Shown: positions 27,044 through 48,458 of the stretch, piece after piece
How positions within the stretch are numbered: the first letter of the stretch is position 1
Layout: each line of letters starts with the position of its first letter
Assembly (NCBI GenBank): GCA_022848805.1
Contig: JAJISI010000002.1
Coordinates: 1-51,533, forward strand
DNA length: 51,533 bases
Direction of reading: 5' to 3'
DNA from: Thermoplasmatota archaeon
GTDB taxonomy: Archaea; Thermoplasmatota; Thermoplasmata; UBA10834
The notes under the pieces: model-generated
Seen by the model: the letters and a program-made list of their open reading frames with translations, nothing else
What the model was told of the DNA's origin: nothing
Database searches by the model: none
Made by a program: the position numbers and the translations under genes

Positions 27044-27532
27044 CTAATCATCTGAGACGAACTCTGATACGATCCTGGTCACTATGGACGGGATGGCGGC
27101 TGCGACCGGAGGGGTCATGCTCTCGCTGACGTTCACGATGTCCTCGGCCTCGATGGCGACGAAGAAGACCTCCTTCGGCATCTTCTCCGGGACGATCTTC
27201 CTTCCCATGGCAAGCGCGGTCGCGATGTTGATGCCGTGAGGCGTCGACCCGTGCACGGTCCTCTCGAACGCACTCTCTTCGAGCACATGGAACTCTCCTG
27301 GTCTCCCCTCGTCCGTCACGATGGCGTCCACGATGACCACTCTGTCGTAGCCCAGAACCATGTCCAACAGCTCCAGACCGCTCGCAGGCAGCTCCTCCAC
27401 ATCCACACTTTCGAGCCCGAGATCCCTGAGCTTCCTCGCTACGTGTATGCCTACACCATCGTCGGAGAGTATTGGGTTGCCGATACCCACAATTAATGTC
27501 CGGGGGCGGTGCAGTTCATCGGAGACGCTCAT
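27044..27532 (-). CDS. [NiFe] hydrogenase maturation endopeptidase
   Basis: LIVGIGNPILSDDGVGIHV..VVIVDA..HG signature of the HycI/HybD/FrhD family. Last gene of the mvh string. Confidence 0.85.
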   Translation of the reverse strand: MSVSDELHRPRTLIVGIGNPILSDDGVGIHVARKLRDLGLESVDVEELPASGLELLDMVLGYDRVVIVDAIVTDEGRPGEFHVLEESAFERTVHGSTPHGINIATALAMGRKIVPEKMPKEVFFVAIEAEDIVNVSESMTPPVAAAIPSIVTRIVSEFVSDD

Positions 27533-27573
27533 GGAGATACCTCATCGCCTAGTATGATGGAAAAACATGTCGT

Positions 27574-27591
27574 CGAGGGGGCTACCCCTCG
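27574..27591 (-). terminator. GC-rich hairpin plus T5 tract between mvhA and the protease gene (possible attenuator or processing site)
   Basis: On the minus strand, CGAGGGG-TAGC-CCCCTCG starts 13 nt after the mvhA stop. TTTTT follows 8 nt later (forward AAAAA at 27561-27565). Confidence 0.3.
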
Positions 27592-27603
27592 TGTGACAAC
27601 ACA

Positions 27604-29118
27604 TCAGAAGTTTCTCACGGTCTTCAGCTTCGACCCGTCGGCGCGTCTCACGTTTATCTCAAGGGCCGGAGAGCCGTTCAGAGCGTGTGTTCCGCAGGAG
27701 TTGCATGGGTCATAGCATCGGAAAGCCATCTCGACCTTGTTCAGCAGTCCTTGGGAGACCTCGCCGTTCTGGATCAACGCCTTCGCCGCCTGCACGACAC
27801 TCGTGTTGATCGCAGCGTTGTTGTTCGTCGTCGCGACGATCATGTTGATCTTCGTGCATAGCCCGTCCTTGTCCGAGGCGTAGTGGTGTATCAGCGTACC
27901 TCTGGGAGCTTCGCATATGCCCACGCCTTCCGTCGGCTCCTTGAACTCGCCCCGTGTGTCATCGCTCGTGATGACGTCGTCAGTGGCCAGCTCGAGCATC
28001 CTCTCCGCAGCGTGCTGCAACTCGATCACCCTAGCCCAATGGAACGCGAGCGTGTGGTGGACGGGGCCTGTCACTCCCAGGTCCTTCACTGTCTTGGCCA
28101 GTACCTCGTACTCCGCCTGTGCGAGGGGAGTCGTGTAGCCCTCGCAGACGTTTATCCTGCCTAGGGGTCCGACCCTGTATATCCCGCTCGACGGGCCTGT
28201 GGTGAAGCCGTTCCAGCCAACGCTCTTCAGATATGGCATCTTCATGTATGACCACGGTTCGACGTGCTCGGCGATGATGTCGAGATACTCGCTCGGCTTG
28301 AACTTGACGACCTCCTTGCCAGCCTGGTCGACGACACGTACGTCCCCGTCGTAGAAGTTGCTCTTGTTGTCCTTGTCGACCATTCCCATGTAGTATGTCT
28401 CGAGGTAGTACGCGTCCTGGTTCAGTATGAGGCCGAGGTAGTCCTGGTTTGCCAGCACGACATCGTGGAACAGCTTGATCGTGAACTTGCCGAACTCGAT
28501 GCACGACCTTGCCATCTCCTCCATCTGAGCGCGCTCCTCCTCACTTATCTGCTTCGAGACGCCGCCTGGCAGGCCGAAGCACGGATGCGTGGCCCTCCCT
28601 CCGACGATCTCCTGCACCTTCTGACCGTACGAGCGGTGCTTGATGACCTCTCCGCCGATCTCGACGCCGACGGCATCCACCACTCCCAAGATATTCCTCT
28701 TGTTGGACGGCGCAGACGGTCCCAGCACGAAGTCGGGCGCTGCAAGCGCGTAGAAGTGTGCTATGTGGCTGTGGACGTACTGACCCATGTAGAATAAATC
28801 TCTCAGTTTTGTCGCCGTCTCTGTCGGGGTGGCGTCGAACACCGCGTCAAGCGTCTTCGTAGACGCTATGTGATGCGCGGCCGGGCAGACGCCACACAGC
28901 CTGTTGGTGATTATGGGCAGCTCCTGCACATGTCTGCCGATGCAGAACCTCTCGAAGCCTCTGAGCTCAGGGACCTGCCAGTAGGCATTGGCCACGTTCC
29001 CCTCGTCGTTCAGGAAGATCTCGATCTTGCCGTGTCCCTCGAGCCTTGTGATCGGGTCGATCGTGAGCTTCTTCTCGGTCGTCTTGGTCGTCGTATCGTT
29101 GATTATCGGTCCGGACAT
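27604..29118 (-). CDS. mvhA: [NiFe] hydrogenase large subunit, Mvh/group-3c-like
   Basis: RLEGHGKI, N-terminal RLCGVCPAAHH and C-terminal DPCNSCGTH Ni-Fe ligands, followed by a 26-residue cleavable extension (ALNGSP...TVRNF). Confidence 0.9.
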   Translation of the reverse strand: MSGPIINDTTTKTTEKKLTIDPITRLEGHGKIEIFLNDEGNVANAYWQVPELRGFERFCIGRHVQELPIITNRLCGVCPAAHHIASTKTLDAVFDATPTETATKLRDLFYMGQYVHSHIAHFYALAAPDFVLGPSAPSNKRNILGVVDAVGVEIGGEVIKHRSYGQKVQEIVGGRATHPCFGLPGGVSKQISEEERAQMEEMARSCIEFGKFTIKLFHDVVLANQDYLGLILNQDAYYLETYYMGMVDKDNKSNFYDGDVRVVDQAGKEVVKFKPSEYLDIIAEHVEPWSYMKMPYLKSVGWNGFTTGPSSGIYRVGPLGRINVCEGYTTPLAQAEYEVLAKTVKDLGVTGPVHHTLAFHWARVIELQHAAERMLELATDDVITSDDTRGEFKEPTEGVGICEAPRGTLIHHYASDKDGLCTKINMIVATTNNNAAINTSVVQAAKALIQNGEVSQGLLNKVEMAFRCYDPCNSCGTHALNGSPALEINVRRADGSKLKTVRNF

Positions 29119-29124: not shown

Positions 29125-30138
29125 TCACCCCTTCCTCTTGCGCTCCTTCACAGTCCTCTTGAGGAGGGACTTGGGGAGCGTGAAGGCGTAGAAAGTCCCG
29201 ATCGGGTCTTTCACCTGCATCATAAGTTCCATTATCTGCTCCTCACTTAACTTTGACTCCGAATCCGTGATGTTGAGGATCGAAGCTAGCGCGCTCAGCA
29301 TGCTACCTCCGTGGTCCATGACGGCCTTCGTCGGGCCCATGCAACCCCTACAGGGCATGTTGGCGACCGGGCACATCGCACCACAGCCCGCGCGCGTCGC
29401 GGGCCCTATGCATATTATGCCCTGGTCCAAGAGGCACTTCTTGGGATCCGCTTTGATCTCATACGCCTGATATATCCTGTCGATGGTTTTGCCCTTCTCG
29501 ACCCTCTCGCGGTCGCACTCGTCGCAGAGCGTCTTGTCAGATGCGATGACAGTGCCCTTCGGCGGCAGAGGCGCCCCCTCCTTCACGTGCTTCAAGAGAG
29601 CACCGACCGCCACCATGATGAGGTCGACCGTGGGCGGACAACCCGGCATGAAGTAATCGACATCCACGACCTCGTCCAGAGTCTTCACGGTGTCGTAGAA
29701 TTCCGGCAGGGTCAACTCTCCCTCCGGCACCATCACACTCGTCTGCGGCGTCACGAAATCGGGATTGTCGGTCGACTCGGTGTCCTTGTAGACTGTCTGG
29801 AAGACCTCCTCCTTGTTCGTCACGTTCGCGAGGCCGGGTGTTCCGCCGAAGCATGCGCACGATCCGAAGCTTATCATTATGACGGATTTCTCCCTCAGCA
29901 CCTTCGCGACGTGCTCGTTCTCGCTGTTCCTTATGGCGCCGTTGTAGAACGCTACCGTGATCGACTTGTCCGGCATCTGCTCCAATTCGTGTAGCTTGCC
30001 GTCGAAACCTATCGGCCAGAACACCACATCGGCTATGGCGTGCAAATCCAGTATCTTTGCGTCTATGTCCAGGAGCGCGACGTCGCATCCCCCGCAACCC
30101 GCGCCCCAGTACTGCGCGATCTTGATCTTATCTGCCAT
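29125..30138 (-). CDS. mvhG: [NiFe] hydrogenase small subunit, Mvh-like
   Basis: MADKIKIAQYWGAGCGGCDVALLDI..GSCACFGG..GCPP..CPVANMPCRGCMGP. The ATG at 30138 follows GGAGGTGA. The 132-codon upstream extension in the ORF track is Arg/Asp/Gly-rich and overlaps the better-supported ORF 30141-30524 in another frame. Confidence 0.88.
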   Translation of the reverse strand: MADKIKIAQYWGAGCGGCDVALLDIDAKILDLHAIADVVFWPIGFDGKLHELEQMPDKSITVAFYNGAIRNSENEHVAKVLREKSVIMISFGSCACFGGTPGLANVTNKEEVFQTVYKDTESTDNPDFVTPQTSVMVPEGELTLPEFYDTVKTLDEVVDVDYFMPGCPPTVDLIMVAVGALLKHVKEGAPLPPKGTVIASDKTLCDECDRERVEKGKTIDRIYQAYEIKADPKKCLLDQGIICIGPATRAGCGAMCPVANMPCRGCMGPTKAVMDHGGSMLSALASILNITDSESKLSEEQIMELMMQVKDPIGTFYAFTLPKSLLKRTVKERKRKG

Positions 30139-30140
30139 GT

Positions 30141-30524
30141 TCAGCTCACCTCCTTGGTCGAAGTGTCGCTCCTCGGGACCGCCTTGTACTGCGGCGACTG
30201 TCCAGTCATGCCGACCTGCTCGATCTGCCTCCATCGCTTGAGGGCGATGACGTGCTTGACTATCTCGGGCTTCGGCAGACCCGTCGCGTCGTGCAGCTCG
30301 TGCACGGTCTGTGGGCCGGCCTCCATCTGCAGCAGGAGCATGTTCCTCTCGAGCTCCACCGAGGCCGCCTTCTCCAGTATGAAGCTGTAGCGGGCGTCGG
30401 TGATCGTCTCGCCGAACACGTTCTCGGATGTCGTCAGCGACTCCTTCTTGCCAAGCAGCCACCGTATCCGCTCTCCCTCGAGCGTCCTGAGCGCCGCATG
30501 TATCTTTACCTCCCTCGGGTTCAT
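30141..30524 (-). CDS. Unassigned 127-aa protein with C-terminal winged-helix-like segment (free-standing copy of the domain fused to MvhD at 34023-34397)
   Basis: Tightly packed between mvhD (2-nt gap) and mvhG (2-nt gap). HTH-like QTVHELHDATGLPKPEIVKHVIALKRWRQIEQV. Hand alignment to the C-terminal half of ORF 34023-34850 gives 23 identities in 92 ungapped positions. Confidence 0.6.
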   Translation of the reverse strand: MNPREVKIHAALRTLEGERIRWLLGKKESLTTSENVFGETITDARYSFILEKAASVELERNMLLLQMEAGPQTVHELHDATGLPKPEIVKHVIALKRWRQIEQVGMTGQSPQYKAVPRSDTSTKEVS

Positions 30525-30526
30525 CC

Positions 30527-30988
30527 TCAGTCACCGCCTCCCATGGGGGATGGGCCGATCTCCTCTATCGTCTTAGTGAAGCTGACCATCGTCTTCTGGA
30601 ACTTCTCGCCCTCTCCGGCGGATATCCACTCGAGGCGCAGTCTGTCCGGATCGAACCCGAACTGCTGGATCAGCATCCTCAGCAACGCGATTCTCCTGCG
30701 CGTTCTGTAGTTGCCGCCTATGTAGTGGCAATCTGCCGGGTGGCAGCCTGCGACTAGGACGCCATCTACTCCCTTCTGGAACGCTCTCAGGACGAACTCA
30801 GGGTCCACTCTGGCCGAGCACATGACCCGTATCACTCTGAAGTGCGGCGGCATCTGTAGCCTGCTGACGCCTGCGAGGTCCGCGCCTGCGTACGAGCACC
30901 AGTTGCAGCAGAAGACGATTATCTTCGGTTCGAAGTCGTCGCCCTCGGCCTTCTCCTGGCTCTGGGCGTTCGGCGTTGCGCTGCTCAT
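30527..30988 (-). CDS. mvhD: MvhD (FlpD-family [2Fe-2S] electron-transfer subunit)
   Basis: [64 protein letters not shown]. Confidence 0.9.
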   Translation of the reverse strand: MSSATPNAQSQEKAEGDDFEPKIIVFCCNWCSYAGADLAGVSRLQMPPHFRVIRVMCSARVDPEFVLRAFQKGVDGVLVAGCHPADCHYIGGNYRTRRRIALLRMLIQQFGFDPDRLRLEWISAGEGEKFQKTMVSFTKTIEEIGPSPMGGGD

Positions 30989-33900
30989 TGCTTCACCTCC
31001 TGCTTGTCCGCGGTCTCCTCTAGCGCCGCATCTATCATCGCTACGATCTGCTCGTCACTGAAGCCCTTCTGGGTCAGCGCGCCTGAGGGGCAGGCGCCGA
31101 TGCACGCCCCGCAACCTTTGCAGAGGCCCACGTTGACATCCACGAGCTTCTTCCCCTCCTCTTTCTCGTTAGGGACGATCTCGAGCGCCTTGTACTCGCA
31201 CGTCGGGACACATAATCCGCAGCCGTCGCAGAACGTCTCGTCGAGGCTCGCTACGATGCCCTCCGCCTCGAGGGTCGTCTTCGACAGCACAGTCATCGCG
31301 CGCGAGACGGTGGCCAGGCCTTGGCCGATGCACTCGTCCAGGAACTTCGGCCCGTGCGCTAGACCTGCGACGTACACTCCCTCCGTGGCGAAGTCGACCG
31401 GCCTGAGTTTCATGTGCGCCTCGAGGAAGAATCCCTCCTTCATGATGGGTACCTTCAGCATCGGCGCGAGTTCCTCGGAGCCGTCACTCGGCCGCGTGCC
31501 CGTGGCGAGCACCAAGTTGTCGGGCGTGAGCACGACCTCCTTGTCAGTGTCCTCATCCGTCACGCGCACCTCTATCTTGCCGCCCTTGTCTTCGACCACC
31601 GGCTTGGCGTCGTCATCGAACCTTATGAAGGTCACGCCCTTCTCGGCAGCCTCCTTGTAGTACTTCTCGCGGAAGCCGTAGGTTCTGATGTCTCTGTAGA
31701 GAACGAATACCTTCGCGTCGGGGTCTTTTTCCTTGATCTTGATCGCCGCGGTCATCGTGCCCGCACAGCACACGCGCGAGCAGTTCGGGTGCCCGTCCTC
31801 TCGCGAGCCGACACATTGGATGAACACGTACGAGTCCCCTTTCGCCTCGCCCCTCTTGAGCTTGGCCTTGAACTCGAGCAGGGTCATCACGCCTGGGTTC
31901 TTGCCGTAGAGGTACTCGCCATCCGGTTTGTACTCCTGCCCTCCGACGGCTAATGTGACCGTGCCGTGCTCTATCTCCTCGCCGGACTCGAGCGTGGTCT
32001 TGAAGTTGCCGACATACCCGTCGATGTCCTTGATCGTCTTACCGATGTAGGTCGTTATATTCGGGTCGGATGTGACCTCCTTCGCGAGTGACTGGACGTA
32101 CTCCATCGGGTCGTCCCCGGACTGGAGGTAGTGCAGCTTGAGCAGGTTGCCGCCCAGCTCCTTCTCCTTCTCGACCAGGTGTACCTTCACACCCTGCTTC
32201 GCCAGCTCGAGAGCCGTCACCATGCCGACCGCGCCGCCACCGACCACTAACGCCTGCTGGTTGACATCGATTGTCAGGTTCTCCAGCGATTCCAGCAACC
32301 GGGACTTCGCGACTGCCATGCGCACGAGGTCTTTCGACTTCTTCGTCGCAGCGGTGGGCTCGTGCATGTGTATCCACGAACATTGGTCCCGTATGTTCGC
32401 CATCTCGAACAGGTACGGGTTGAGCCCAGCCTCCTTGATGGTGTTCTGGAACAGCGGTTCGTGCGTCCTGGGCGTGCAGCTCGCGACGACCACCCTGTTC
32501 AGGTTGTGCTCCTTCACCATCTGCTTGATCTTCTCCTGTGTGTCCTGTGAGCAGGTGTACAGGTTCTCCTCAGTGTACACCACATTCGGAAGGGACTTCG
32601 CGTACTCAGCCACCGACGGCACATTGACCACGCCGCCTATGTTGATCCCGCAGTGACACACGAACACGCCTATCCGTGGCTCCTGCTCCGAGACGTCTGT
32701 CTCGGCGGGATACTCCTTCTTCGTGACGAGCGTGTTCCTGGCCGAGGAGATCTCGGACGCGGCCTTCGCCGCCGCCCCACTCGCCTCCGCGACTGTCATC
32801 GGAATGTCCTTCGGAGACGAGAACGCGCCACTGACGAACACTCCTGGTCGGGATGTGCTGACCGGGGTGAACGCGCCAGTCTCGCAGAAACCGTCGTCGT
32901 TCAGGCTGAAATTCATGACCTTGCTGAGCGCCTCGGCATCCTCCGGAGGCCTCAGACCCACCGCCAGCACGACCAGCCCGAACTCCTCCTCCTTGGGCTC
33001 TCCCTTCTCCACGTAACTGACTATCAGATTCTTCGTTTCCGGGTCCTCGAACACAGACGCAACCCTGGAACGGACGAACTCGATGCCGTACTCGTCCTTG
33101 GCCCTGTTGTAGTACTCCTCGAACTCCTTCCCGAAGGTTCTCATATCCATGAAGAATATCTTGGGTTTGATGTTCCCGCCGTGCTCCTTGGCTATGATGG
33201 CCTCCTTGATGGAGTACATGCAGCAGACGCCGGAACAGTACTCGTTACCGACCTTCTCGTCCCTCGAGCCTACGCATTGAATGAACGCTATCTTCTCGGG
33301 TATGTCTCCGTCCGAAGGTCTCAAGACCGTGCCGAAGTGCGGTCCTGTGGCGCTGAGTATCCTCTCGAGCTCGATGCTCGAGACGACGTTCTGGTACACG
33401 CCGTACCCGTACTCCGCCTTCAACCGCGGGTCGAACTCGTCGAAGCCAGGCGATACGATGATCGAGCCGACCTTGATCTCGAAATCCTTCTCCTTCTGGT
33501 CGTAGTCGACCGCGTCGGCCTTGCACTCCTCCGCGCATATGCCGCACCCGATGCACTTGTCCTGGTCGATCGAGTATACGAGGGGCACTGCCTGCGGGTA
33601 CTTGACGAATATCGCCTTCCGCACCTTCGTGTTCTCGTTGTACTCGTCAGTCGTCTCTATCGGGCACTTCTGGGCGCAGCTGCCACAGCCCGTACACTTC
33701 GAAGCGTCCACTCTGAGCGCCCTCTGCTTGCCGGTCACCGTGAAGTTGCCTTCCTGTCCGTCGACTTTGACGATGTCCGCGTTCGTTATCAGCTCGATGT
33801 TGTGGTGTCTCCCGGTCGCGACGAGCTTCGGGGCCATGATGCACATGGCGCAGTCGTTCGTCGGGAAGGTCTTGTCGAGCTGGGCCATCGCGCCGCCTAT

Positions 33901-34026
33901 GCTCGGCTGCTTCTCGACCAGGTACACCTTGAATCCTGAGTCGGCCAGGTCCAGCGCCGACTGCAGGCCTGAGATGCCCCCTCCGACGACCATGACCGCT
34001 CCGGTCTTGTCACTAGCTGCCATCAC
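30985..34026 (-). CDS. Double-length HdrA-family flavoprotein (1013 aa; two thioredoxin-reductase-like FAD modules in tandem)
   Basis: Half A (res 1-~435): [20 protein letters not shown], inserted ferredoxin (CTGCGSCAQKCP, CIGCGICAEEC), [15 protein letters not shown]. Half B (res ~445-1013): [16 protein letters not shown] Cys domain, [24 protein letters not shown]-terminal 2x[4Fe-4S] (CDGCGLCVPTC, CKGCGACIGACP). Confidence 0.9.
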   Translation of the reverse strand: MMAASDKTGAVMVVGGGISGLQSALDLADSGFKVYLVEKQPSIGGAMAQLDKTFPTNDCAMCIMAPKLVATGRHHNIELITNADIVKVDGQEGNFTVTGKQRALRVDASKCTGCGSCAQKCPIETTDEYNENTKVRKAIFVKYPQAVPLVYSIDQDKCIGCGICAEECKADAVDYDQKEKDFEIKVGSIIVSPGFDEFDPRLKAEYGYGVYQNVVSSIELERILSATGPHFGTVLRPSDGDIPEKIAFIQCVGSRDEKVGNEYCSGVCCMYSIKEAIIAKEHGGNIKPKIFFMDMRTFGKEFEEYYNRAKDEYGIEFVRSRVASVFEDPETKNLIVSYVEKGEPKEEEFGLVVLAVGLRPPEDAEALSKVMNFSLNDDGFCETGAFTPVSTSRPGVFVSGAFSSPKDIPMTVAEASGAAAKAASEISSARNTLVTKKEYPAETDVSEQEPRIGVFVCHCGINIGGVVNVPSVAEYAKSLPNVVYTEENLYTCSQDTQEKIKQMVKEHNLNRVVVASCTPRTHEPLFQNTIKEAGLNPYLFEMANIRDQCSWIHMHEPTAATKKSKDLVRMAVAKSRLLESLENLTIDVNQQALVVGGGAVGMVTALELAKQGVKVHLVEKEKELGGNLLKLHYLQSGDDPMEYVQSLAKEVTSDPNITTYIGKTIKDIDGYVGNFKTTLESGEEIEHGTVTLAVGGQEYKPDGEYLYGKNPGVMTLLEFKAKLKRGEAKGDSYVFIQCVGSREDGHPNCSRVCCAGTMTAAIKIKEKDPDAKVFVLYRDIRTYGFREKYYKEAAEKGVTFIRFDDDAKPVVEDKGGKIEVRVTDEDTDKEVVLTPDNLVLATGTRPSDGSEELAPMLKVPIMKEGFFLEAHMKLRPVDFATEGVYVAGLAHGPKFLDECIGQGLATVSRAMTVLSKTTLEAEGIVASLDETFCDGCGLCVPTCEYKALEIVPNEKEEGKKLVDVNVGLCKGCGACIGACPSGALTQKGFSDEQIVAMIDAALEETADKQEVKQ
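32381..32504 (-). repeat. Near-identical nucleotide tract shared with 42590-42713 (paralogous double-HdrA genes)
   Basis: Hand alignment at a constant offset of 10209 nt gives 115 of 124 positions identical, including perfect runs of 29, 22 and 40 nt. Confidence 0.8.
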
Positions 34027-34850
34027 TGCTCACCCCCGATCTCGATGGTCTTGTAGAGCGGTGTGAACCCCTCCGGATGCTCCATCGCGATCATGCTGTT
34101 CTGTCTGAGTAGGACGATGTGCCTGAGGACCCTGTCCGTGGGCACCTCCATGACCATGCCCAGCTGTTTCACCGACATGGGTCTTATCCGTGCCAGCTCG
34201 AGTATAAGTGCCCTCTCGAACTCCTCCTCCGTGGCGACATCTATGATGCCGGTGAGTTTCTCAGGATCGACCGTGTCACCGTACGCATTCCCCTTGCTCA
34301 GGAGGTTGAACTCCTTCCCGACCAGGGCCTTCAGTCTGAATGTTTCGGAGGCGTCGTCAGCGGCTGCGACCTTCGCCTTCACCATATCATCCGTATGTAC
34401 CTTGCTCGGCCCCAGCTTCTGGATCTCTTCGGTGAATTCCGTCACGACCTTGGAGAACTTCTCTCCCTCGGACGCCGAGACCCATTCGAGCCTCAGCCGG
34501 CCCTCCTCGATCCCCGCTTCTCTGAGCAGCCTCTTCATCAGATTCACGCGCTTCTCCGTGTGGTAATTGCCCGTCATGTAGTGACAGTCGTTCAGGTGGC
34601 ATCCTCCAACGAGGATGCCGTCGGCACCGGCCTCGAGGACGTCGAGTACGATGTGCGGGCTCACCCTCGTGGAGCACATCACCCTGACGAGGCGGATGTT
34701 CGTCGGGTACTGGAACCTGCTGACGCCGCATAGATCGGCGCCTGCGTACGAGCACCAGTTGCACAGGAAGCCGACGATCTTCGGCTCCCATTCCTTGTCG
34801 GCCTCGGCCTCCTTCTTGCCGTGATGAGCGGTGTGATGCTTCTCCGTCAT
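34023..34850 (-). CDS. MvhD domain fused to the unassigned winged-helix-like domain
   Basis: N-terminal [61 protein letters not shown]. The C-terminal ~120 aa is homologous to ORF 30141-30524. The ATG at 34850 follows GGAGGAGGTG. The ORF-track start at 34889 would overlap the upstream gene. Confidence 0.85.
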   Translation of the reverse strand: MTEKHHTAHHGKKEAEADKEWEPKIVGFLCNWCSYAGADLCGVSRFQYPTNIRLVRVMCSTRVSPHIVLDVLEAGADGILVGGCHLNDCHYMTGNYHTEKRVNLMKRLLREAGIEEGRLRLEWVSASEGEKFSKVVTEFTEEIQKLGPSKVHTDDMVKAKVAAADDASETFRLKALVGKEFNLLSKGNAYGDTVDPEKLTGIIDVATEEEFERALILELARIRPMSVKQLGMVMEVPTDRVLRHIVLLRQNSMIAMEHPEGFTPLYKTIEIGGEQ

Positions 34851-39444: not shown

Positions 39445-39484
39445 TCAAAAACCCCCTTCAAGTCGCATGTTCATCACCGCGTTG

Positions 39485-39508: not shown

Positions 39509-39604
39509 AACCCCTCTTGCCACTGCGGTATCGAATCCCCTCTCTTATGTGTTTCGTTGGGATATTGACGAATCTTGTGCGATTCACGCCTCCCGTACGA
39601 ACCA

Positions 39605-41206: not shown

Positions 41207-44200
41207 GCCTTCGCCTCCCGTTCCTCGTCGTCATCTGCAAGCGCCGCCTCTATCATCGTGATTATCTGGTCGCTCCTGAAATGCTTGGACCGGATGGCCC
41301 TGGAACAACACTCGACCACACACGAACCGCAGCCTTTGCACAGCGCCTCGTTCACCTTCGACTTGAACACTCCGGGGGAGACCTCCTCGAGCCTCGGGGC
41401 GCCGTATTCGCAGAGGTCCACGCATCTCCCACAGCCGATGCATTTTTCCTCGTCGACCACGCTGACGACGCCCTCGCCCTCTATGAACGGCTTGGAGAGG
41501 ACCGTGTTGACCCTCGCGGCCGCGGCCAGCGCCTGCGAGATGCTCTCGTCGATCAGCCGCGGTGAGTGGGCTAGGCCGCAGAGGAATATGCCATCGGTCG
41601 CGAAGTCGACCGGCCTGAGCTTCATGTGCGCCTCGAGGAAGAACCCCTCCTCGTTCTGCGGTACCTTCAATTTCTGGGCTATGTCCTTGTTGTCGGGGTT
41701 AGGATGGACTGCGGCGTTCAGCACGACATAGTCCGGCCTGATCGTGATGGTCTCCTCTATGAACTTCTCGTCGATCTCGACGATTATGCCATCGCCGTCC
41801 GCTCTCACCTTGGGGGGCGATTCAGGGTCGTACCTTAGGAATCTCACCCCCTGACGGGCGGCCTCGTTGTAGTTCTCTTCTGCGAAGCCGAACGTGCGTA
41901 TGTCCCTGAACAGGATGTACACGCTCGTCTCGGGGTGCTCCTCTCGTATCTTGAGCGCGTTGGCCATCGCCGTGGAGCAGCATATCCTCGAGCAGTTCGG
42001 GTGCTCTTCGTTCCTCGAACCGACGCATTGAATTATTGCGACGGCCTTCGCGTCAAGCTCGCCCTTCGCCAGCATATCTCCCAGGTCGGTCTGTTTGATG
42101 ACCTTCGGGTGCTGGCCGCAGAGGTATTCCGTCGGTTCGTACTCCACCGCACCGGAGGCGACGACCACCGCTCCGTGTTTGATCTCTTCGCCGCCTTTCA
42201 GGGTGGTCTCGAAGTTGCCTATGTACCCTTTGACCTCCTCGACGGTCTCTCCGAGGTGTATCGTGACGTTCGTGTTGTCCTGCAAGTCCTTCTTGAGGTT
42301 TGCAAGGGTTTCCTGAGGGTTCACGCCTGCGAGCGTGTGGTGGATCCTCCTCATGTGCCCTCCCAACTCCTTCTCCTTTTCGACTATGTGTACCTCGTAT
42401 CCCGCCTTGGCTATCTCCAGCGCCGCGGTCATACCGCTCAACCCTCCGCCTATCACCAGTGCGGCCGGGGTGACCGGTATCTTCGGCTGAGGGAGCGGTT
42501 CGAGCATGGATGCCTTCGCGACTGCCATGCGCACGAGGTCCTTCGACTTCTCGGTGGCGGCCTCCGGTTCCAACCTGTGGACCCACGAGCATTGGTCCCG
42601 TATGTTCGCCATCTCGAAGAGATACTTGTTGAGCCCCGCCTCTCTGACGGTGTTCTGGAACAGCGGTTCGTGTGTCCTGGGCGTGCAGCTCGCGACGACC
42701 ACCCTGTTCAGGTCGTGCTCGTCGATCATCTCCTTGATCTTCTTCTGCGTGTCCTGAGAACAAGTGTACAGGTTTTCCTCCGCGTATACGACACCAGGGA
42801 GCTTGGAGGCGTACTCCATCACCCCAGGCACGTCTACGACGGATCCTATGTTGATCCCGCAATGGCAGACGAACACCCCTATCCTGGGTTCCTTGTCCGT
42901 CACGTCCTTCTCCTCGGGATACTCCTTCTTCGTGACCAGCTTGCCCCTCTCGTCTGAGAGCAAGGCGGCCGCCTTCCCTGCAGCTCCGCTTGCCTGAGCG
43001 ACAGAATCGGGTATGTCCTTCGGGCCGGAGAACGCCCCGCAGACGTAGATTCCTGGCACCGAAGTATCGACAGGCGCGAGCTCGTCGGTTTCGCAGAAGC
43101 CGAACTTGTTCATATTCATGCCAAGCGATTTCGCGAGCGCTTTCGAGGATTCCGGTGGCGTCGCCCCGGATGCCAGTACGACCATATCGAAAGTCTCATC
43201 TTCGATGTCAGCGCCATCTATGAAGCCGAGTACGAGGTCGCTCGTCCCGGGGTTCTCCTGGACCTTCGCGATCCTGTTGTTCCTGAACATCCTGACGCCG
43301 TACTCATCCTCCGCCCGGTGCAGATACTCCTCGAACTCCTTCCCGAAAGCTCTGGTATCCATGAAGAATATGGTCGTCTTGAGCCCCGGAACATGCTCCT
43401 GGGCGATGACCGCTTGCTTCAAGGCTGCCATACAGCAGTACGAGGAGCAGTAGGTGTTCGGCGTCTGTGCGTCCCTGGAGCCGACGCATTGTATGAACGC
43501 GATATTTTTCGGCACGTCCCCGTCCGAAGGCCTGATCACATGCCCCTCTGTAGGGCCTGACGCGCTCAACATCCTCTCGAACTCGATGTTGCTGAGCACG
43601 TTGGGGAACGTGCCATGACCGTACATCACCTTCTTTGAAGAGTTGTATACGTCGTAGCCTGGCGCGAGGATTATGGCGCCGACGTCTATGGTCTCTTCGA
43701 TATCTGGGTCCATGTCGTATTTGATGGCCTCAGCCTCGCAGAACTTCTCGCAGATGCCGCATCCGATGCACAGCCCTCTGTCGATGGTGTATATCAACGG
43801 GACTGCCTGCGGGAACGGTACATATATCGCCTTCGCGGGCGCCAGCTCCCTGTCGAATGCGCTGGACCACTCAATGGGACAGTGCTCCGCACACACGCCG
43901 CAGCCGGTGCACTTCTCCTCGACGATGTACCGTGAGTACTTGGCGAGTGTTACCTTGAAGTTCCCGGCCTGCCCCTCGACCTTCTTGAGAACGGAATAGG
44001 TGAGCATTGTGACATTCTCATGCCTGCCGGTCGCGACGAGCTTCGGGGACAGTATGCACATCGAGCAGTCGTTCGTCGGGAATGTCTTATCGAGCTGCGA
44101 CATAGTCCCTCCGATGCTCGGCGTCGTCTCCAGAAGATACACCTTGAACCCTGAATCCGCGAGATCCAGTGCGGCCTGCATCCCCGCCGGTCCGCCGCCG

Positions 44201-44238
44201 ATGACCAGGACGGCACCTACCCGCTCGTTCTTTGTCAT
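41203..44238 (-). CDS. Double-length HdrA-family flavoprotein (1011 aa), paralogue of 30985-34026
   Basis: Same half-A/half-B order: [58 protein letters not shown]. Then [61 protein letters not shown]. Confidence 0.9.
42590..42713 (-). repeat. Near-identical nucleotide tract shared with 32381-32504
   Basis: See the 32381-32504 entry. The tract encodes the conserved [26 protein letters not shown] segment of half B. Confidence 0.8.
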
Positions 44239-44240: not shown

Positions 44241-44684
44241 CTACGCACCCTCCTGAGCGATCGGTCCTAGCTGCTCGAGGTCAGACACCATTTCCCTGAT
44301 GACTTTGGCGAACTTCTGCCCTTCAGAACCAGCGATCCACTCGATTCTGAAGCGTTCCGGCTCTATGCCCGTCTCCTCTAAGAACTCCTCCAGGAAGTCG
44401 CCTCTCGTCGCGGTCTTCTCGTTGCCGTTGATGTAATGGCAGTCTGAGGGATGGCACCCAGCGACTATCACCCCGTCCGCTCCGAGCGTGAATGCCTTGA
44501 GGACGAACGCAGGGTCCACCCTCCCCGAACACATGACTCTCACGATCCTCACGTTCGGCGGATACTGCATCCTCGTGGTGCCCGCGAGGTCCGCGCCTGC
44601 GTACGAGCACCAGTTGCAGCAGAACGCGACTATTTTGGGCTCGTAGCTCGGCTGGTCCTGCTTGGCTTCTGACTGCTCTGCCAC
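44241..44684 (-). CDS. mvhD: MvhD (FlpD-family) subunit
   Basis: [61 protein letters not shown]. Confidence 0.9.
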   Translation of the reverse strand: MAEQSEAKQDQPSYEPKIVAFCCNWCSYAGADLAGTTRMQYPPNVRIVRVMCSGRVDPAFVLKAFTLGADGVIVAGCHPSDCHYINGNEKTATRGDFLEEFLEETGIEPERFRIEWIAGSEGQKFAKVIREMVSDLEQLGPIAQEGA

Positions 44685-44686
44685 GG

Positions 44687-45604
44687 TCAGACCCCCCTGA
44701 GCTTCCTGAGGAACGAGTGTGCCGACACGTGGTGCGTGTCGAACCCGAGCGATATCGGGTCGATGCCCATCGCCAGCGCCTGGAACTGAGCCACGTGCAT
44801 CACAGGGATGCCGTCCTTGGTGAAAGCCTTCTGGGCGTTGTCGAACTGGAGCAGACAGAAAGGGCAGCCAGTGACGATGCAGTCCGCCTCAGCAGCGACG
44901 ATGTTCCTGCATTTGTCTTCCGTGAGGGAATTGGCCAGCTCCACCACGTGAGACCTGACGCCTCCACCAGCGCCGCAGCAGTCCAGCTTGTCTTCGTAGT
45001 CGACGCTCGTCGCACCGCACGCCTCGATTATCTGGTCGATCTTGACGGGGTCGTTGGGGTCGTCGATGGTCTGGTTCTCGGTCGGTCTAAGATAATGGCA
45101 CCCATAGTGTACCGCCGCTTTGATGTTCTTGAGCGGCCGCGTGGTACGTTTCTGGACCTCTTCGAGACTGATGTCATTCGTCATGACGTCCACATAGTGC
45201 CTGACCTTGACCGGCTCCATTATCCGTCTCCGGCCCTCGGTCTTCCGAGGGGTACCCGTGTATTTCTTTCCTATCTGCGCCAGCATCCGGTTGACCTTTC
45301 CCCTCCTCTTGGAGTCCTCGAGGTACTCCGTCGCCTTGAGAAGTGAGGTGAGACAGCCGTTGCAGACGGTTAGTATCTCCCTGCGCTCCTTCTGCCCCAG
45401 GACGAGGTTGCGGGAGGCCAGCAACAACCATGTGTCTTTGTCCGATGAGTAGAATATTCCTGGCACCGGGCAGCACGAGAACTCCTTGATATCCGCGACA
45501 TCGAGGTCGTACCCTTCCTTGCCACAGACCCACCTGACCGCGTACTCGACGCCCGGGTATCTGTTCGGTATTATGCACCCGAAGAAGTAGGCGTAGCTGG
45601 TCAT
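44687..45604 (-). CDS. hdrB: Heterodisulfide reductase subunit B (two CCG domains)
   Basis: YFFGCIIPNRYPG..SCCPVPG..CNGC and HYGCHYLRP..CCGAGGG..GCPFC. Confidence 0.92.
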   Translation of the reverse strand: MTSYAYFFGCIIPNRYPGVEYAVRWVCGKEGYDLDVADIKEFSCCPVPGIFYSSDKDTWLLLASRNLVLGQKERREILTVCNGCLTSLLKATEYLEDSKRRGKVNRMLAQIGKKYTGTPRKTEGRRRIMEPVKVRHYVDVMTNDISLEEVQKRTTRPLKNIKAAVHYGCHYLRPTENQTIDDPNDPVKIDQIIEACGATSVDYEDKLDCCGAGGGVRSHVVELANSLTEDKCRNIVAAEADCIVTGCPFCLLQFDNAQKAFTKDGIPVMHVAQFQALAMGIDPISLGFDTHHVSAHSFLRKLRGV

Positions 45605-46179
45605 GCCTTCACCTCCTCCTCGATGCCGATGAGCTTGTCGTATCCGACCGCGTGGACGAGCACGTTGATTTCCTTTATCACCTTCGCGTACTCCGCCCCT
45701 CGCGAGGGAACGTCCTCGAGATCTAGCTCCTTCCGGATCTTCTCGACCTCCAGGTCAGGTTTCACGCTCTGGCCGTACTTCACCAGGTTGGCAGCCGCCA
45801 CCTTTATGAACGGCGGTATGACCCCTTCCCTGATAGCGATGTGCCTAAGCGCGATCATGACCTCCGCAGGGTTGATATCGGCTGGACAGTGCTCGTAGCA
45901 TCTGTAGCATGTTGCGCACACCCATTGTGTTCCGAGTGTGAGCGTCTTGAGGCCGAACTGGCAGTACTTGATGATGCTCCTGGTCTTGTAGTCTATCTTG
46001 AGGCTGATCGGGCACACACCTGTACAGTTTCCGCACTGCAGGCATGTCATGACGTCCTTGCCGCCGTACTTGACGATCTCCTTCGCGAAACCAGGCTCCA
46101 ACTGTGACTCGTCTATGACCTTGTCCTCGACCAGCTTCTCGCGCAGGCCGCTCAGGAAGACCTTCTCCACCTCCCCCAT
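45601..46179 (-). CDS. hdrC: Heterodisulfide reductase subunit C
   Basis: CLQCGNCTGVCP and CATCYRCYEHCP ferredoxin motifs in a 192-aa protein. ATGA overlap with hdrB. Confidence 0.92.
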   Translation of the reverse strand: MGEVEKVFLSGLREKLVEDKVIDESQLEPGFAKEIVKYGGKDVMTCLQCGNCTGVCPISLKIDYKTRSIIKYCQFGLKTLTLGTQWVCATCYRCYEHCPADINPAEVMIALRHIAIREGVIPPFIKVAAANLVKYGQSVKPDLEVEKIRKELDLEDVPSRGAEYAKVIKEINVLVHAVGYDKLIGIEEEVKA

Positions 46180-48281
46180 TACGACACCTCCTCCTCGGCA
46201 GCGGGTTTCTTCGCCATTTCCTTCGTCTTGCCTCCGCCGCTCTCCACGTCCTCGAGCGCGGAAACGATCTCAGAGGTGATCTGGTCGTCTGTGAATTGGT
46301 TCGCTACGATCGCTTTCTGCGGGCACGCGGCCACGCATGTTCCACAGCCATGGCACAGCGCCTCGATGACCCTGGCTTTCGTGCCCTTCTCTCCTTCGTA
46401 CAGCTCGGGAGCACGGTACGGGCACATCTCGACGCATAGCCCGCATGCCACGCAGAGATCCTCATCGACCATAGCAGTCAACGGCTCGATTTTGACCTTC
46501 TTACCGGACATGACGCAAGCGGCAGAAGCTGCCGCGGCCTTCGCCTGGGCGATGGAATCGGGGATATCCTTGGGGCCCTGCGCACACCCTGCGAGATATA
46601 TGCCGTCCATGGCCGTGTCGACCGGCCGTAGCTTCGGGTGTGCCTCCATGAAGAATCCGTCCGGGCTCAGTGACAGCGCGAGCGTCTTGCCGATACGCTT
46701 ACTTCCTTCCGACGGAAGGAGTCCCGTCGAGAGCACCACGAGGTCGAACTCCCTCTCGGTTATCTTGTTTAGAAGGGTCTCCTCTGCCCTGATCGTGATT
46801 GACTTGGTCTCGGGGTCCTCGCTCAACTTCGCAGGCCGGCCTCTTATGAACTCTACGCTGTACTCCTCTCTCACGCGATGGTAGAGCTCCTCGAAACCCT
46901 TACCGAACGCCCGGATGTCGTTGTAGTAAACCGATATCTCGGTCTCAGACGCGTGCTCCTTGATGATCTGCGCGTTCTTGATTGCATACATGCAGCACAC
47001 GCGCGAGCAGTAGTTGTTGCCAATCTTCTTGTTCCTTGAGCCGACGCACTGTATGAATGCTATCCTCTCAGGAGCCTCGCCGTCTGATGGACGGATGAGG
47101 TGTCCTCCAGTCGGCCCAGCGGCGTTGATGAGCCGCTCCAATTCCAGGCCGGTTATGACGTTCGGGTACTCCCAGTACTTGTACACTCCCCGCTTCTTCG
47201 GCAGGTAGGTGTCGTAGCCTGTCGCGACGATTATCGTTCCTACCTTGAGGTCGACGAGCTCGTCCTCCATCTCGTGGTCTATCGCATTGTTTTGGCAGGC
47301 CTTGAGACAGGCCTTGCACTTGCCGTTCTTGAAATGTATGCAGTTGTCCTTGTCGATCGTGTATATGAGGGGAACCGCCTGGGGGAACGGCACGTATATG
47401 GCCTTCCTCTTGCCGTATCCAAGGTCGAACTTGTTGTCGACCTTCACCGGGCATACATCCGCGCAGACCCCGCAACCAACGCACTTGTCCTCGATGACGA
47501 ACCTTGATTTCCTTCTGACCTTGATGTCGAAGTTGCCGATGAATCCCTGAACGTCCTCCACCTCGGAGTACGACATCAGGGTGATGTTCGGGTGTCGTGC
47601 GACATCCACCATCTTAGGCGCTAGTATGCATATCGCACAGTCGCCCGTCGGGAAGGTCTTGTCTAGCTGTGCCATCCGGCCACCGATGCTAGGTTCGGAC
47701 TCGACGAGGTAGACTTTGAATCCCATCTGGGCCAGGTCGAGGGCTGCCTGTATTCCTGCCACTCCTCCGCCTATGACCAGTGAGGTCTGCTCCACAGGCA
47801 CCTCACGGGCCTCGAGGGGCACGAGTCTGGAAGCCTTGGCGACTCCCATCCTAACAAGGGCGATTGCCTTCCTCGTGGCCTCTTCCTTCTGCTGGGAGTG
47901 TACCCAGGAACACTGCTCCCGCAGGTTGACCATCTGTAGAAGGTAAGGGTTCAGTCCCGCCTGTTTGATGCAGTTCCTGAAGGTTGGCTCATGCATCCTA
48001 GGCGAGCACGCGGCGACCACCACGCGATTGACGTGGTTCTCCTTGATCGCCTTGATGATCTCATCCTGTCCAAGGTCGGAGCAGGTGTACTTGTTCCCCT
48101 TCGAGACGACGACTCCTGGTAATCTCTCCGCGGATTCCCGGACCTTTTCGACGTCAACCGTACCAGCGATGTTGCTGCCGCAGTGACACACGAAAACGCC
48201 GACCCTAGGCTCTTCGTCCCCGCTCTCCCGTTCGGGCTTCTTCTGAGCGGAGTTCTCTTCGAGTGACTCGGGTGAACTCAT
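46179..48281 (-). CDS. hdrA: Heterodisulfide reductase subunit A, canonical four-domain form
   Basis: [16 protein letters not shown] Cys domain, VIGGGVAG, DKTFPTGDCAIC, inserted ferredoxin (CVGCGVCADVCP ...CKACLKAC), [16 protein letters not shown]-terminal CVACGLCVEMCP and CHGCGTCVAACP. The ATG at 48281 follows AGAGGGA. The upstream ATG at 48353 lacks an SD. TAATG overlap with hdrC. Confidence 0.92.
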   Translation of the reverse strand: MSSPESLEENSAQKKPERESGDEEPRVGVFVCHCGSNIAGTVDVEKVRESAERLPGVVVSKGNKYTCSDLGQDEIIKAIKENHVNRVVVAACSPRMHEPTFRNCIKQAGLNPYLLQMVNLREQCSWVHSQQKEEATRKAIALVRMGVAKASRLVPLEAREVPVEQTSLVIGGGVAGIQAALDLAQMGFKVYLVESEPSIGGRMAQLDKTFPTGDCAICILAPKMVDVARHPNITLMSYSEVEDVQGFIGNFDIKVRRKSRFVIEDKCVGCGVCADVCPVKVDNKFDLGYGKRKAIYVPFPQAVPLIYTIDKDNCIHFKNGKCKACLKACQNNAIDHEMEDELVDLKVGTIIVATGYDTYLPKKRGVYKYWEYPNVITGLELERLINAAGPTGGHLIRPSDGEAPERIAFIQCVGSRNKKIGNNYCSRVCCMYAIKNAQIIKEHASETEISVYYNDIRAFGKGFEELYHRVREEYSVEFIRGRPAKLSEDPETKSITIRAEETLLNKITEREFDLVVLSTGLLPSEGSKRIGKTLALSLSPDGFFMEAHPKLRPVDTAMDGIYLAGCAQGPKDIPDSIAQAKAAAASAACVMSGKKVKIEPLTAMVDEDLCVACGLCVEMCPYRAPELYEGEKGTKARVIEALCHGCGTCVAACPQKAIVANQFTDDQITSEIVSALEDVESGGGKTKEMAKKPAAEEEVS

Positions 48282-48458
48282 GATTTCCCTCTTTGCTCGG
48301 GTAGTCGAATCAAATCCAGGACGAGAGAGACCACGGAAACAAAGCGTCGCCATCTGACGCTTACACTCGACTCTGGCAGTTCTGACGAGGTGTGTGTAAT
48401 AAAGGAGCCCTTAATATAGCTTTCGTTATCCATGTTTCGAAAAACGCAGGGTCCTTAG

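Follow-up and report, generated by a model that had tools for sequence, protein, structure and literature searches.

Here we analyze a 51.5-kb stretch of DNA (51,533 nucleotides, hereinafter the window) from an uncultured sediment archaeon (Thermoplasmatota, UBA10834 lineage; contig JAJISI010000002.1) that is probably not a methanogen, and propose that a block of 15 co-directional genes on its minus strand (27044-48281) is a two-operon island for soluble HdrA-based flavin bifurcation/confurcation that would reversibly couple H2, NADPH and ferredoxin to a high-potential acceptor; we put the probability of this reading at about 0.6. In methanogens, energy coupling relies at its core on HdrA-based bifurcation, which is increasingly met in non-methanogens as well. 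The locus holds nearly every described HdrA architecture on one strand, namely the canonical, fused and split forms and the form with an NfnB-like insert. In total, the block encodes five HdrA polypeptides that comprise seven thioredoxin reductase-like (TrxR) modules with flavin adenine dinucleotide (FAD) sites, four MvhD domains and two CCG units, together with a single NAD(P)H module and a single hydrogenase. Pfam searches bear out these counts, which were given in an earlier note made from the sequence alone, and modules for all the partners that the note named (H2, NAD(P)H, ferredoxin and a CCG-type acceptor) are indeed encoded.

Gene content and transcription units of the block

Gene content was established with Pfam, Protein Data Bank (PDB) sequence and NCBIfam searches. 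All long open reading frames (ORFs) between 27044 and 48353 are on the minus strand. Refinement of starts and frames leaves 15 genes, one fewer than the 16 ORFs originally counted:

46179-48281 (-): O1, canonical (type I) HdrA; matches 5odc_A over the full length (phmmer E = 1.9e-268)
45601-46179 (-): O2, HdrC, 2 x [4Fe-4S] (Pfam Fer4_8/9/10)
44687-45604 (-): O3, HdrB with two CCG domains (Pfam CCG, E = 2.5e-28, two stretches)
44241-44684 (-): O4, MvhD, [2Fe-2S] adaptor (Pfam FlpD, E = 1.7e-56, full profile)
41203-44238 (-): O5, fused tandem HdrA (type II, BamE-like), 1011 amino acids (aa); three stretches match 8rvu_a in permuted order
39605-41206 (-): O6, MvhD fused to an HdrD-like unit (Pfam FlpD at residues 10-132, Fer4 at 165-225, two CCG domains)
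36739-39444 (-): O7, A6-type HdrA with an NfnB/GltD-like insert (type III; Pfam Fer4_20 and Pyr_redox_2)
34855-36732 (-): O8, A12-type HdrA without the inserted ferredoxin (alignment to 5ODC_A)
34023-34850 (-): O9, long MvhD with a winged-helix domain X (X at about 34026-34397; Pfam FlpD)
30985-34026 (-): O10, second fused tandem HdrA (type II, BamE-like), 1013 aa (Pfam, alignment)
30527-30988 (-): O11, MvhD (Pfam FlpD, E = 4.9e-55)
30141-30524 (-): O12, free-standing X (winged-helix) protein, 127 aa (homology to the C-terminal domain of O9)
29125-30138 (-): O13, MvhG-type [NiFe]-hydrogenase small subunit, 337 aa (5odc_E, E = 2.1e-74, near full length; Pfam Oxidored_q6)
27604-29118 (-): O14, MvhA-type (group 3c-like) [NiFe]-hydrogenase large subunit (5odc_F, E = 3.2e-114; 7t2r_D, E = 8.9e-115)
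27044-27532 (-): O15, HycI-type hydrogenase maturation endopeptidase (Pfam HycI, E = 5e-11)

After refinement of the starts by orthologue lengths, the gene junctions range from -4 to +6 nt, with two exceptions of 160 nt (39445-39604) and 71 nt (27533-27603), in agreement with the single minus-strand block described previously. Orthologue length also determined the choice of the starts of O1 (48281) and O9 (34850); the O1 ORF reaches 48353, and given that the orthologues consist of 695-700 aa, 48281 is the most likely start. A 469-aa ORF at 29125-30534 (-) was rejected as a single gene: the orthologues show O12 and a 337-aa MvhG, and the first ~130 residues of the ORF, in the MvhG frame, are an Arg/Ala-rich out-of-frame translation over O12.

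The canonical HdrA, O1, consists of an N-terminal cluster domain, the TrxR-FAD module, the inserted ferredoxin and the C-terminal ferredoxin. The position of O2 behind hdrA is kept in relatives. Both C...CC...CxxC motifs are legible in the translation of O3, O4 contains the motifs CCNWC, VMCSG and GCHxxDCH, and the translation of O14 includes RLCGVCPAAHH and DPCNSCGTH; the group 3c-like label of O13 and O14 comes from PDB sequence matches. O6 had been described as an MvhD-HdrC-HdrB fusion. The MvhD/[4Fe-4S]/CCG layout of that description stands, but the CCG part appears to resemble HdrD-type proteins rather than the solved HdrB: the PDB matches are MvhD chains, the 'iron-sulfur-binding reductase' 9ojn_A (E = 1e-30) and HdrC, and solved HdrB is absent among the matches of this sequence search. 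In metagenome-assembled genomes (MAGs) of Methanomassiliicoccaceae, the counterpart of O6 is two genes, for MvhD and an HdrD-like protein. Within the block, 14 kb and one promoter-like motif lie between hdrACB-mvhD and mvhGA. Pfam detects no NfnA/PyrK-like gene in the block, the Pfam/NCBIfam scans no NuoEFG-like genes in the window, and there are no mcr or coenzyme M/coenzyme B biosynthesis genes within the 51.5 kb.

The pattern AACGAAANNYATA has two matches in the entire window, one upstream of O1 and the other upstream of O7:

48415-48427 (-): promoter-like motif AACGAAAGCTATA, resembling a TFB recognition element (BRE) and TATA box, ~130 nt upstream of the O1 start
39546-39558 (-): promoter-like motif AACGAAACACATA, within the 160-nt gap, ~100 nt upstream of O7

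At least two matches were obtained in 8 of 100 shuffles; it is the locations of the matches that carry the weight. In an alignment of 12 orthologous gaps, including those of distant relatives, the core AACGAAACA.ATAA does not vary, the remaining gap sequence being diverged. The motif looks like a BRE/TATA pair, and the shared element is a candidate for either such a pair or a common operator of two operons. A GC-rich hairpin (GAGGGGTAGCCCCCTC) followed by TTTTT is located at 27560-27600 (-), immediately behind the MvhA stop codon and ahead of the protease gene, and may function as a terminator or attenuator. Because of the two shared, conserved motifs and the hairpin behind O14, we propose that the block comprises two co-regulated operons, O1-O6 and O7-O14 (O15). 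Between the promoter-like motif and the start of O7, there is also an imperfect palindrome, CATTGTAC...TACAATG (~39478-39503, minus strand), which is partly conserved in close relatives.

HdrA paralogues, the NfnB-like insert and the long MvhD

All seven TrxR modules were aligned to the sequence of 5ODC_A, which was rebuilt from the HMMER alignment. O1 has all the cluster cysteines as well as Cys197, Glu356 and Lys409. The other modules fall into two complementary types. The N-terminal halves of O5 and O10, as well as O7, have neither the N-terminal cluster domain nor the C-terminal ferredoxin domain and retain Cys194/Cys197, the inserted ferredoxin, Glu356 and Lys409; in the C-terminal halves of O5 and O10 and in O8, the N-terminal cluster and the C-terminal ferredoxin are present, and Cys197 and the inserted ferredoxin are lost. 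The four cysteines of the HA4-type cluster are found in 7 of the 7 TrxR modules. O8 is the split counterpart of the C-terminal half of O5 and O10, and, judging from the complementary domain sets, O7 and O8 together are evidently the unfused version of an O5/O10-type pseudo-dimer.

In the C-terminal half, Lys409 is replaced by Ala in O5 and by Thr in O10, and Glu356 is lost as well; O8 retains both residues. A census over all loci fetched gave the following frequencies of Lys at the Lys409 position:

N-terminal half of tandem HdrAs: 111/111
C-terminal half of tandem HdrAs: 43/111
split A12-type HdrAs: 33/33
split A6-type HdrAs: 57/57

Thus, in the fused HdrAs of the block, it is only the N-terminal half that carries the Lys/Glu signature of a bifurcating FAD, and the seven FAD modules counted in the earlier note should not be equated with seven bifurcation sites. 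This matches BamE, a fused HdrA dimer in which the first FAD (Lys280) bifurcates and the second one (Gln768) was judged structural (10.64898/2026.04.10.717634). O5 and O10 are, respectively, 47% and 48% identical (range 47-48%) to, and colinear with, the BamE-like protein of locus L123, from a Dehalococcoidales MAG with a complete bam-like cluster, the BamE- and BamF-like proteins of which served as a proxy for the BamE and BamF of G. metallireducens. This cluster consists of genes for AOR, a small ferredoxin-like protein, an HdrD-like protein, a tandem HdrA, MvhD with a helix-turn-helix domain, and NuoE-, NuoF- and NuoG-like proteins. The cluster cysteines and FAD motifs of the HdrA and MvhD proteins that were checked are almost all intact, the exceptions being the bifurcation residues of the C-terminal halves and one MvhD cysteine in O9; hence the additional paralogues are not decaying copies.

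Two peculiarities of individual HdrAs are worth recording. At residues ~316-330 of O1, the second motif of the inserted ferredoxin is C-x7-C-x2-C-x3-C (CIHFKNGKCKACLKAC), the corresponding motif of the solved HdrAs being C-x2-C-x2-C-x3-C. O8 contains, directly behind the Lys409 helix, a highly charged insertion of ~60 residues (residues ~335-395; ~35548-35730, minus strand) with the Arg run ERRRRRRGR(G), which is present in all examined Thermoplasmata orthologues, including those from Methanomassiliicoccaceae MAGs, and absent from the A12-type HdrAs of Asgard archaea and ANME-1 (a group of anaerobic methanotrophic archaea).

The insert of O7 spans ~475 aa (~37570-38997) and separates the two cluster motifs of the inserted ferredoxin domain, the insertion point being flanked by CNGCGDCFKVCP and CSQCEACATAC. 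Residues 1-149 and 626-897 of O7 match 5odc_A, and residues 153-627 match 9bov_A, 8oh5_C (StnC) and the NfnB chains 4ylf_B and 5jca_L (E from 1e-100 to 1e-132), covering the whole FAD/NAD(P)H plus 2 x [4Fe-4S] module, GltD included. In the sister clades, the orthologues at the O7 position are insert-free proteins of 431 aa that are 72-80% identical to the flanking HdrA parts of O7; because the insert-free orthologues occupy the same position, the insertion evidently occurred in situ, in the subclade of loci L001-L008. UBA9653 (L053) was considered as another carrier of the insert and rejected, its ORFs being of the insert-free type. The insert is ~45% identical both to the inserts of Bathyarchaeota type III HdrAs and to bacterial GltD-like modules.

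The second Rossmann motif in the translation of O7 is GGGNAAMD, followed by YRR, an arrangement that we take to resemble the NADPH sites of GltD and NfnB. This suggests that the insert uses NADPH; a 2025 survey argues for NADH in its type III HdrAs (PMC12054007). Although it shares the NfnB module, O7 is not an Nfn enzyme because no NfnA-like partner is encoded in the block.

GltD-like modules also occur in tandem HdrAs of 1357-1498 aa, probably of the HdrL type, from Deltaproteobacteria/Desulfobacterales (L107, L118, L132 and L136). In L107 and L136, MvhD-X comes next after the GltD-bearing tandem HdrA, and another tandem HdrA after that; in L118, the middle position is taken by an X-only ORF, and L132 stops at the contig end. 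In L107, L118 and L136, an MvhD completes the order. These loci are the bacterial counterpart of O7-O10. In an uncultured member of the Thermoplasmatales (L116), a single ORF of 1031 aa appears to join MvhD-X to a GltD-bearing HdrA, and the protein P0388 contains a partial FlpD, X, TrxR, Fer4_20 and Pyr_redox_2, in that order.

O9 consists of a FlpD domain and the ~120-aa C-terminal domain X. It has more than 100 orthologues (263-296 aa), and the family displays the motif LCNWC in place of the CCNWC of ordinary MvhDs. An AlphaFold2 model of O9 built with a 54-row alignment reached a pLDDT of 80 and a pTM of 0.79 (a single-sequence run gave a pLDDT of 40), and Foldseek matched this model to MvhD (TM 0.88-0.91 to 5odc_D and 8rvu_F) and to ArsR/SmtB-like winged helix-turn-helix proteins (SmtB/CzrA/NolR). 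No solved long MvhD was found either by PDB sequence search, which returned short MvhDs only, or by Foldseek. In a profile search of 1.8 billion representative proteins, X was represented by 271 clusters (50% identity). Among the 10 larger members scanned, X is located directly C-terminal to MvhD/FlpD in seven and behind a partial FlpD in an eighth; the larger members include one HdrA-MvhD-X fusion and one apparent MvhD-X-HdrA(GltD) fusion. BamF is an MvhD that exceeds the usual length by more than 100 residues and has a winged helix that contacts the input module BamI (10.64898/2026.04.10.717634). The profile of the MvhD-X family aligns with the BamF-like protein of L123 with an hhalign probability of 100 (E = 1e-58), colinearly to residue 249 of 255; with the X-only profile, the match in the same region is weak (E = 0.002). 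Because of the FlpD fusions, the O9 model and the colinearity with the BamF-like protein, X can be tentatively read as the winged-helix extension of BamF-type adaptors, and O11 together with O12 would be a split version of such an adaptor. In the searchable literature, the preprint on class II benzoyl-CoA reductase (BCRII) is the only source that ties MvhD to a winged helix.

Some members of the family seem to be selenoproteins. An MvhD-X homologue on a Logan SRR14039865 contig (L080:3-767) has an in-frame TGA in LCNW*AY, implying selenocysteine (Sec) in the place of the second Cys of CNWC, the same position as that of the Sec19 reported for BamF (10.64898/2026.04.10.717634). Among the fetched loci, many ORFs for MvhD, MvhD-X and HdrA from Deltaproteobacteria also appear to be cut short in this way. 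A search for related loci with the Sec-containing MvhD-X P0252 produced no match.

Proposed mechanism, conservation of the locus and alternative readings

Each of the pseudo-dimers combines one MvhD docking side (the N-terminal cluster plus the C-terminal ferredoxin, on the C-terminal half or O8), one low-potential exit (the inserted ferredoxin, on the N-terminal half or O7) and HA4-type clusters on both halves. By analogy with the Mvh-Hdr and BCRII structures, electron pairs would enter via MvhD and split at the FAD of the N-terminal half; the high-potential electron would then proceed through the HA4-type cluster to the CCG protein (HdrBC or HdrD-like), and the low-potential electron through the inserted ferredoxin domain to ferredoxin. 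Under this scheme, O1-O4 would be the textbook HdrABC plus MvhD module, and O5/O6 a BamDEF-like module with the adaptor and the acceptor unit fused. O7/O8/O9 would form a split pseudo-dimer with a long adaptor, the low-potential port of which is probably wired to the NADP(H) pool because the GltD/NfnB-like module sits in the inserted ferredoxin domain. O10/O11/O13/O14 would be the H2-dependent module, as in Methanomassiliicoccales. The likely role of the system is to supply reduced ferredoxin and to balance reductant for tetrahydrofolate (H4F) Wood-Ljungdahl/acetogenic-type metabolism, not for methanogenesis. The acceptor could be CoM-S-S-CoB (a heterodisulfide), another disulfide or a protein such as the electron-transferring flavoprotein (as for BamD); the earlier note had left the acceptor open, in agreement with the report that the order of the closest named relatives is without methyl-coenzyme M reductase (MCR).

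Several points weigh against this scheme. All the modules are known here from genes alone, and the lack of MCR from papers on relatives of the host. A CCG gene is missing from the second operon, and O4, O6 and O9, three of the four MvhDs, are without a dedicated donor module in the block. The retention of Lys409 and Glu356 in O8 implies that the rule of one bifurcating FAD per pseudo-dimer may fail for the split pair, and the preference of the O7 insert for NADPH over NADH, as well as the direction of electron flow, is read from motifs only.

A conservation scan of species-representative genomes with O7 as the query yielded uncultured Thermoplasmata MAGs with 80-98% identity. In the window and its relatives, the block is embedded among hydrogenase maturation genes:

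25968-27029 (+): hypE (NCBIfam TIGR02124, 384 bits); the same position in relatives
48675-49790 (-): hypD (NCBIfam, 424 bits), upstream of the block
49750-50124 (-): hypA-like gene (N-terminal MHEFSV motif alone)
50391-51527 (-): 3' part of hypF (NCBIfam, 269 bits)

The full order hypD/O1...O15/hypE is found in seven other MAG loci (L001 and L003-L008), and L002 shows the same order as far as the contig end; two of the loci with the full block are on records deposited as chromosomes (CP070748.1 and CP070732.1). The same order is present in sister MAGs with 70-76% identity, including RBG_13_57_23, RBG_19FT_COMBO_56_21, UBA10834 and UBA9653, which have been placed in the order UBA10834 (Ca. Gimiplasmatales), a group reported to lack MCR and to possess the H4F Wood-Ljungdahl pathway along with ACS. 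Variants of the block occur in dozens of further loci. L015, L018 and L020 lack O1-O4; in L012 and L017, duplication of the O9-O10 pair (MvhD-X plus tandem HdrA) brings the number of HdrA units to five; and Methanomassiliicoccaceae MAGs retain O5, the split MvhD/HdrD-like pair, O7' (the O7-position gene), O8, O9, O10, O11, O13 and O14. The block is modular, and the island grows and shrinks by whole modules. Together with the kept order among relatives, this module-wise variation shows that the extra copies are co-conserved, as the neighbourhood check proposed in the earlier note required of the network that it envisaged. An assembly artefact or pseudogenes can be dismissed because the order is kept in many MAGs, two chromosome records among them, and the ligands are intact.

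The gain and loss of modules among relatives (L015/L018/L020, L012/L017, and the GltD insert in one subclade) would also be compatible with functional redundancy, that is, with four separately assembled heterodisulfide reductases that share an acceptor and a pool of HdrBC/HdrD and differ only in the donor (H2, NADPH or an unknown one) or in regulation. Consistent with such independent isoenzymes, hdrBC of Methanomassiliicoccales is located apart from hdrA-mvhDGA (PMC4153887), and the two predicted promoters permit separate regulation. However, the order of the O5-O14 core is strict over a protein identity divergence of 50-60%, the O7-O11 arrangement is kept across phyla, and the paralogues differ systematically in domain content instead of being near-identical copies. 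We consider this alternative unlikely, albeit the least so among those discussed here.

The arrangement of O7-O11 bears on a different possibility. Eighty loci were fetched with a 5-row MvhD-X alignment, and their ORFs were labelled against the window proteins. The recurrent order is [HdrC-HdrB] - [A6 + A12 or tandem HdrA] - MvhD-X - [tandem HdrA] - MvhD - [HdrCB or HdrD-like] - [MvhG-MvhA]; it spans Bathyarchaeia, Asgard archaea (Promethearchaeota/Loki, Heimdall-, Hel-, Jord- and Sifarchaeia), Thermoplasmata, ANME-1, Deltaproteobacteria, Dehalococcoidia, Cloacimonadota and others. Among the 44 loci with room on either side of the gene, 33 have an HdrA gene immediately on both sides of MvhD-X, and several of the exceptions are splits by Sec or frameshift. 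The contiguous runs contain a median of four TrxR modules and 0-1 CCG gene, and a donor module is rare. Because the order recurs across archaeal and bacterial phyla, O7-O11 looks like one evolutionarily conserved double unit. The earlier note had divided the region into 'HdrA(GltD)/HdrA/MvhD-X' and 'double HdrA/MvhD/...', a split that cuts through this unit, conserved from Asgard archaea to Deltaproteobacteria; its pairing of MvhD-X with the GltD module also does not hold, given that the insert is confined to one subclade and the position of MvhD-X is unchanged in the insert-free relatives. Our literature search retrieved no paper describing the O7-O11 unit as such; partial precedents are the HdrL/HdrA tandem loci of Desulfobacterium autotrophicum (PMC2702500) and the multi-HdrA clusters of ANME (PMC9012536).

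The conserved sandwich invites the conjecture that O7-O11 assemble into one particle, in which the winged helix of O9 docks the hydrogenase-fed O10 as the input module of O7/O8. The O7-O11-type unit would then be a widespread two-stage Hdr supercomplex in which a long MvhD couples two HdrA-type flavin sites for serial bifurcation/confurcation, plugged here into H2 (MvhGA) and NADPH (the NfnB insert). Besides the position of MvhD-X between HdrA genes in many phyla and the composition of the contiguous runs, this serial arrangement has a parallel in BCRII, where BamF, through the winged helix that sits on the input module, docks BamGHI onto BamE and two bifurcation modules are coupled (10.64898/2026.04.10.717634); the colinearity of the MvhD-X family with the BamF-like protein fits as well. 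The case, however, rests on gene order only, and each pseudo-dimer has an MvhD of its own, which fits two independent complexes equally well. Furthermore, at low H2 concentrations, the energetics of a bifurcation chain starting from H2 are difficult to defend, and in Methanomassiliicoccales with a reduced set, a tandem HdrA with MvhDGA appears to be enough (PMC4153887). Accordingly, we regard the supercomplex, both for the window and as a widespread device, as somewhat less probable than the independent isoenzymes. The MvhD-X sandwich across two domains of life is nevertheless a directly testable lead that takes the coupling of bifurcation modules, found in BCRII in 2026, a step further (10.64898/2026.04.10.717634).

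The role of O12 could also be conceived differently, namely, as a usual ArsR/IclR-type transcription factor controlling the operon and not as a structural subunit. O12 has 135 close homologues, some of which are labelled ArsR family in databases, the homologous domain of O9 resembles SmtB/CzrA/NolR, and the conserved motif upstream of both operons is a candidate operator. The matches of O12 to the Pfam families HTH_IclR (21.0 bits) and HTH_5 (17.2 bits) are weak and below the gathering cut-off of 22. BLASTP aligns O12 with residues 185-282 of O9 (E = 8e-12, 26% identity), that is, with a domain that in most of the 10 larger X-family members scanned is fused behind MvhD/FlpD. The O12 gene itself is translationally coupled, with 2-nt spacers, between mvhD and mvhG, and the corresponding winged helix in BCRII is a protein-protein interface (10.64898/2026.04.10.717634). 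A regulatory function of O12 thus appears improbable.

Soluble bifurcation/confurcation by two operons remains the reading that we favor, and under it the locus is a compact experimental target. The questions that could be addressed include the nature of the acceptor in a non-methanogen, whether the second flavin of the fused HdrAs is inert as in BamE, and whether two HdrA units are bridged by the widespread MvhD-winged-helix protein.

The remainder of the window is archaeal, with genes for Elp3, CDC48, an archaeal-type Por and NadE and the his operon. Within this archaeal context, a class II (bacterial-type) lysyl-tRNA synthetase is encoded at 11968-13452 (-) (TIGR00499, 601 bits). The gamma and delta subunits of the pyruvate:ferredoxin oxidoreductase are fused in a 294-aa ORF at 8129-9013 (+) (PorC at residues 1-181, PorD at 221-294), which precedes porA and porB.

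Comparison with known systems

Every building block of the locus has already been described, by comparative genomics or by structure, and the system is not categorically new. The fused HdrA, HdrA-NfnB, HdrL, the two-FAD HdrA with mvhDGA, and BamDEF are all published, so that the novelty implied by the earlier note was too high. What is new is that a single conserved locus, from a lineage reported to lack MCR, brings all these architectures together; that NfnB was inserted in situ into a split partner; that MvhD is fused to HdrD and X also occurs as a free protein; and that the Lys signature is asymmetric family-wide and MvhD-X is widespread, typically between two HdrA pseudo-dimer genes.

The structure of the MvhAGD-HdrABC complex of hydrogenotrophic methanogens was reportedly determined by Wagner et al. 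in 2017. O1-O4 together with O13 and O14 cover every subunit of this complex (PDB 5ODC): the MvhD, MvhG and MvhA proteins of the window match 5odc_D, 5odc_E and 5odc_F, and O1 aligns with 5odc_A end to end. Unlike in that complex, the hydrogenase genes of the window come after a fused HdrA, and CoM-S-S-CoB is not assured as the substrate since the relatives of the host are reported to lack MCR.

The similarity to BamDEF of BCRII includes the fused HdrA dimer with an identical domain order and one flavin with the bifurcation signature (O5/O10), the long MvhD with a C-terminal winged helix (O9) and the exit through an HdrBC fusion of the HdrD-like kind (O6); BamF has been described as MvhD plus a winged helix-turn-helix domain and BamD as an HdrBC fusion (10.64898/2026.04.10.717634). 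In contrast to the BCRII system, the window contains neither AOR-type BamBC nor NuoEFG-like BamGHI, MvhD and the HdrD-like unit are joined in O6, and the donor is a [NiFe] hydrogenase and/or NADPH. Also, O9 has Cys where BamF has Sec, and the gene following O9 encodes a tandem HdrA, the NuoG-like BamI being the protein docked by the winged helix of BamF.

In the classification of the 2025 survey, type II HdrAs are fusions of A6 and A12 and type III HdrAs carry a GltD insert (PMC12054007); a 2022 study of ANME proposed a complementary 'self-heterodimer' pattern and described tandem and fused HdrAs and an ANME-1 HdrA-NfnB with the insert at the identical site (PMC9012536). O5 and O10 conform to A6 + A12, O7 is a type III A9 (A6-derived) and O8 is A12, and the complementary pattern of Cys197 and the N-terminal domain fits the heterodimer model. 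Unlike the published type II and III systems, the block is without an FdhB/Molybdop partner and belongs to an order reported, from relatives, to lack MCR; the insert of O7 resides in a split partner within a double unit to which MvhGA also belongs; and the C-terminal halves of O5 and O10 have lost Lys409/Glu356, whereas both halves are said to retain the key residues in the 2025 survey (PMC12054007).

A precedent for the H2-dependent part is the long HdrA of Methanomassiliicoccales, which contains two FAD sites and is encoded immediately upstream of mvhD-mvhG-mvhA, with unlinked hdrBC (Borrel et al. 2014, PMC4153887). O10 matches this HdrA, and Methanomassiliicoccaceae MAGs carry orthologues of O5-O11, O13 and O14 in order. 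The window adds to this set the canonical hdrACB-mvhD as well as the NfnB insert and a free-standing X protein, and Methanomassiliicoccales differ in being methanogens with CoM-S-S-CoB.

Among bacteria, Desulfobacterium autotrophicum encodes HdrA-glutamate-synthase fusions (HdrL) followed by mvhD (PMC2702500), and the HdrA of Moorella thermoacetica (MetFV-HdrABC-MvhD) is also a fused dimer (PMC9012536). The HdrL/MvhD loci differ from the window in that they are bacterial, often encode selenoproteins and accommodate the GltD module within a tandem HdrA of 1350-1500 aa, and the Moorella system differs in that no MetFV is present in the window. Finally, O7 aligns with the NADPH modules of NfnAB, GltD and StnC over the full module (residues 153-627) but, unlike in these enzymes, the module is an internal insertion in HdrA, without an NfnA-type partner.

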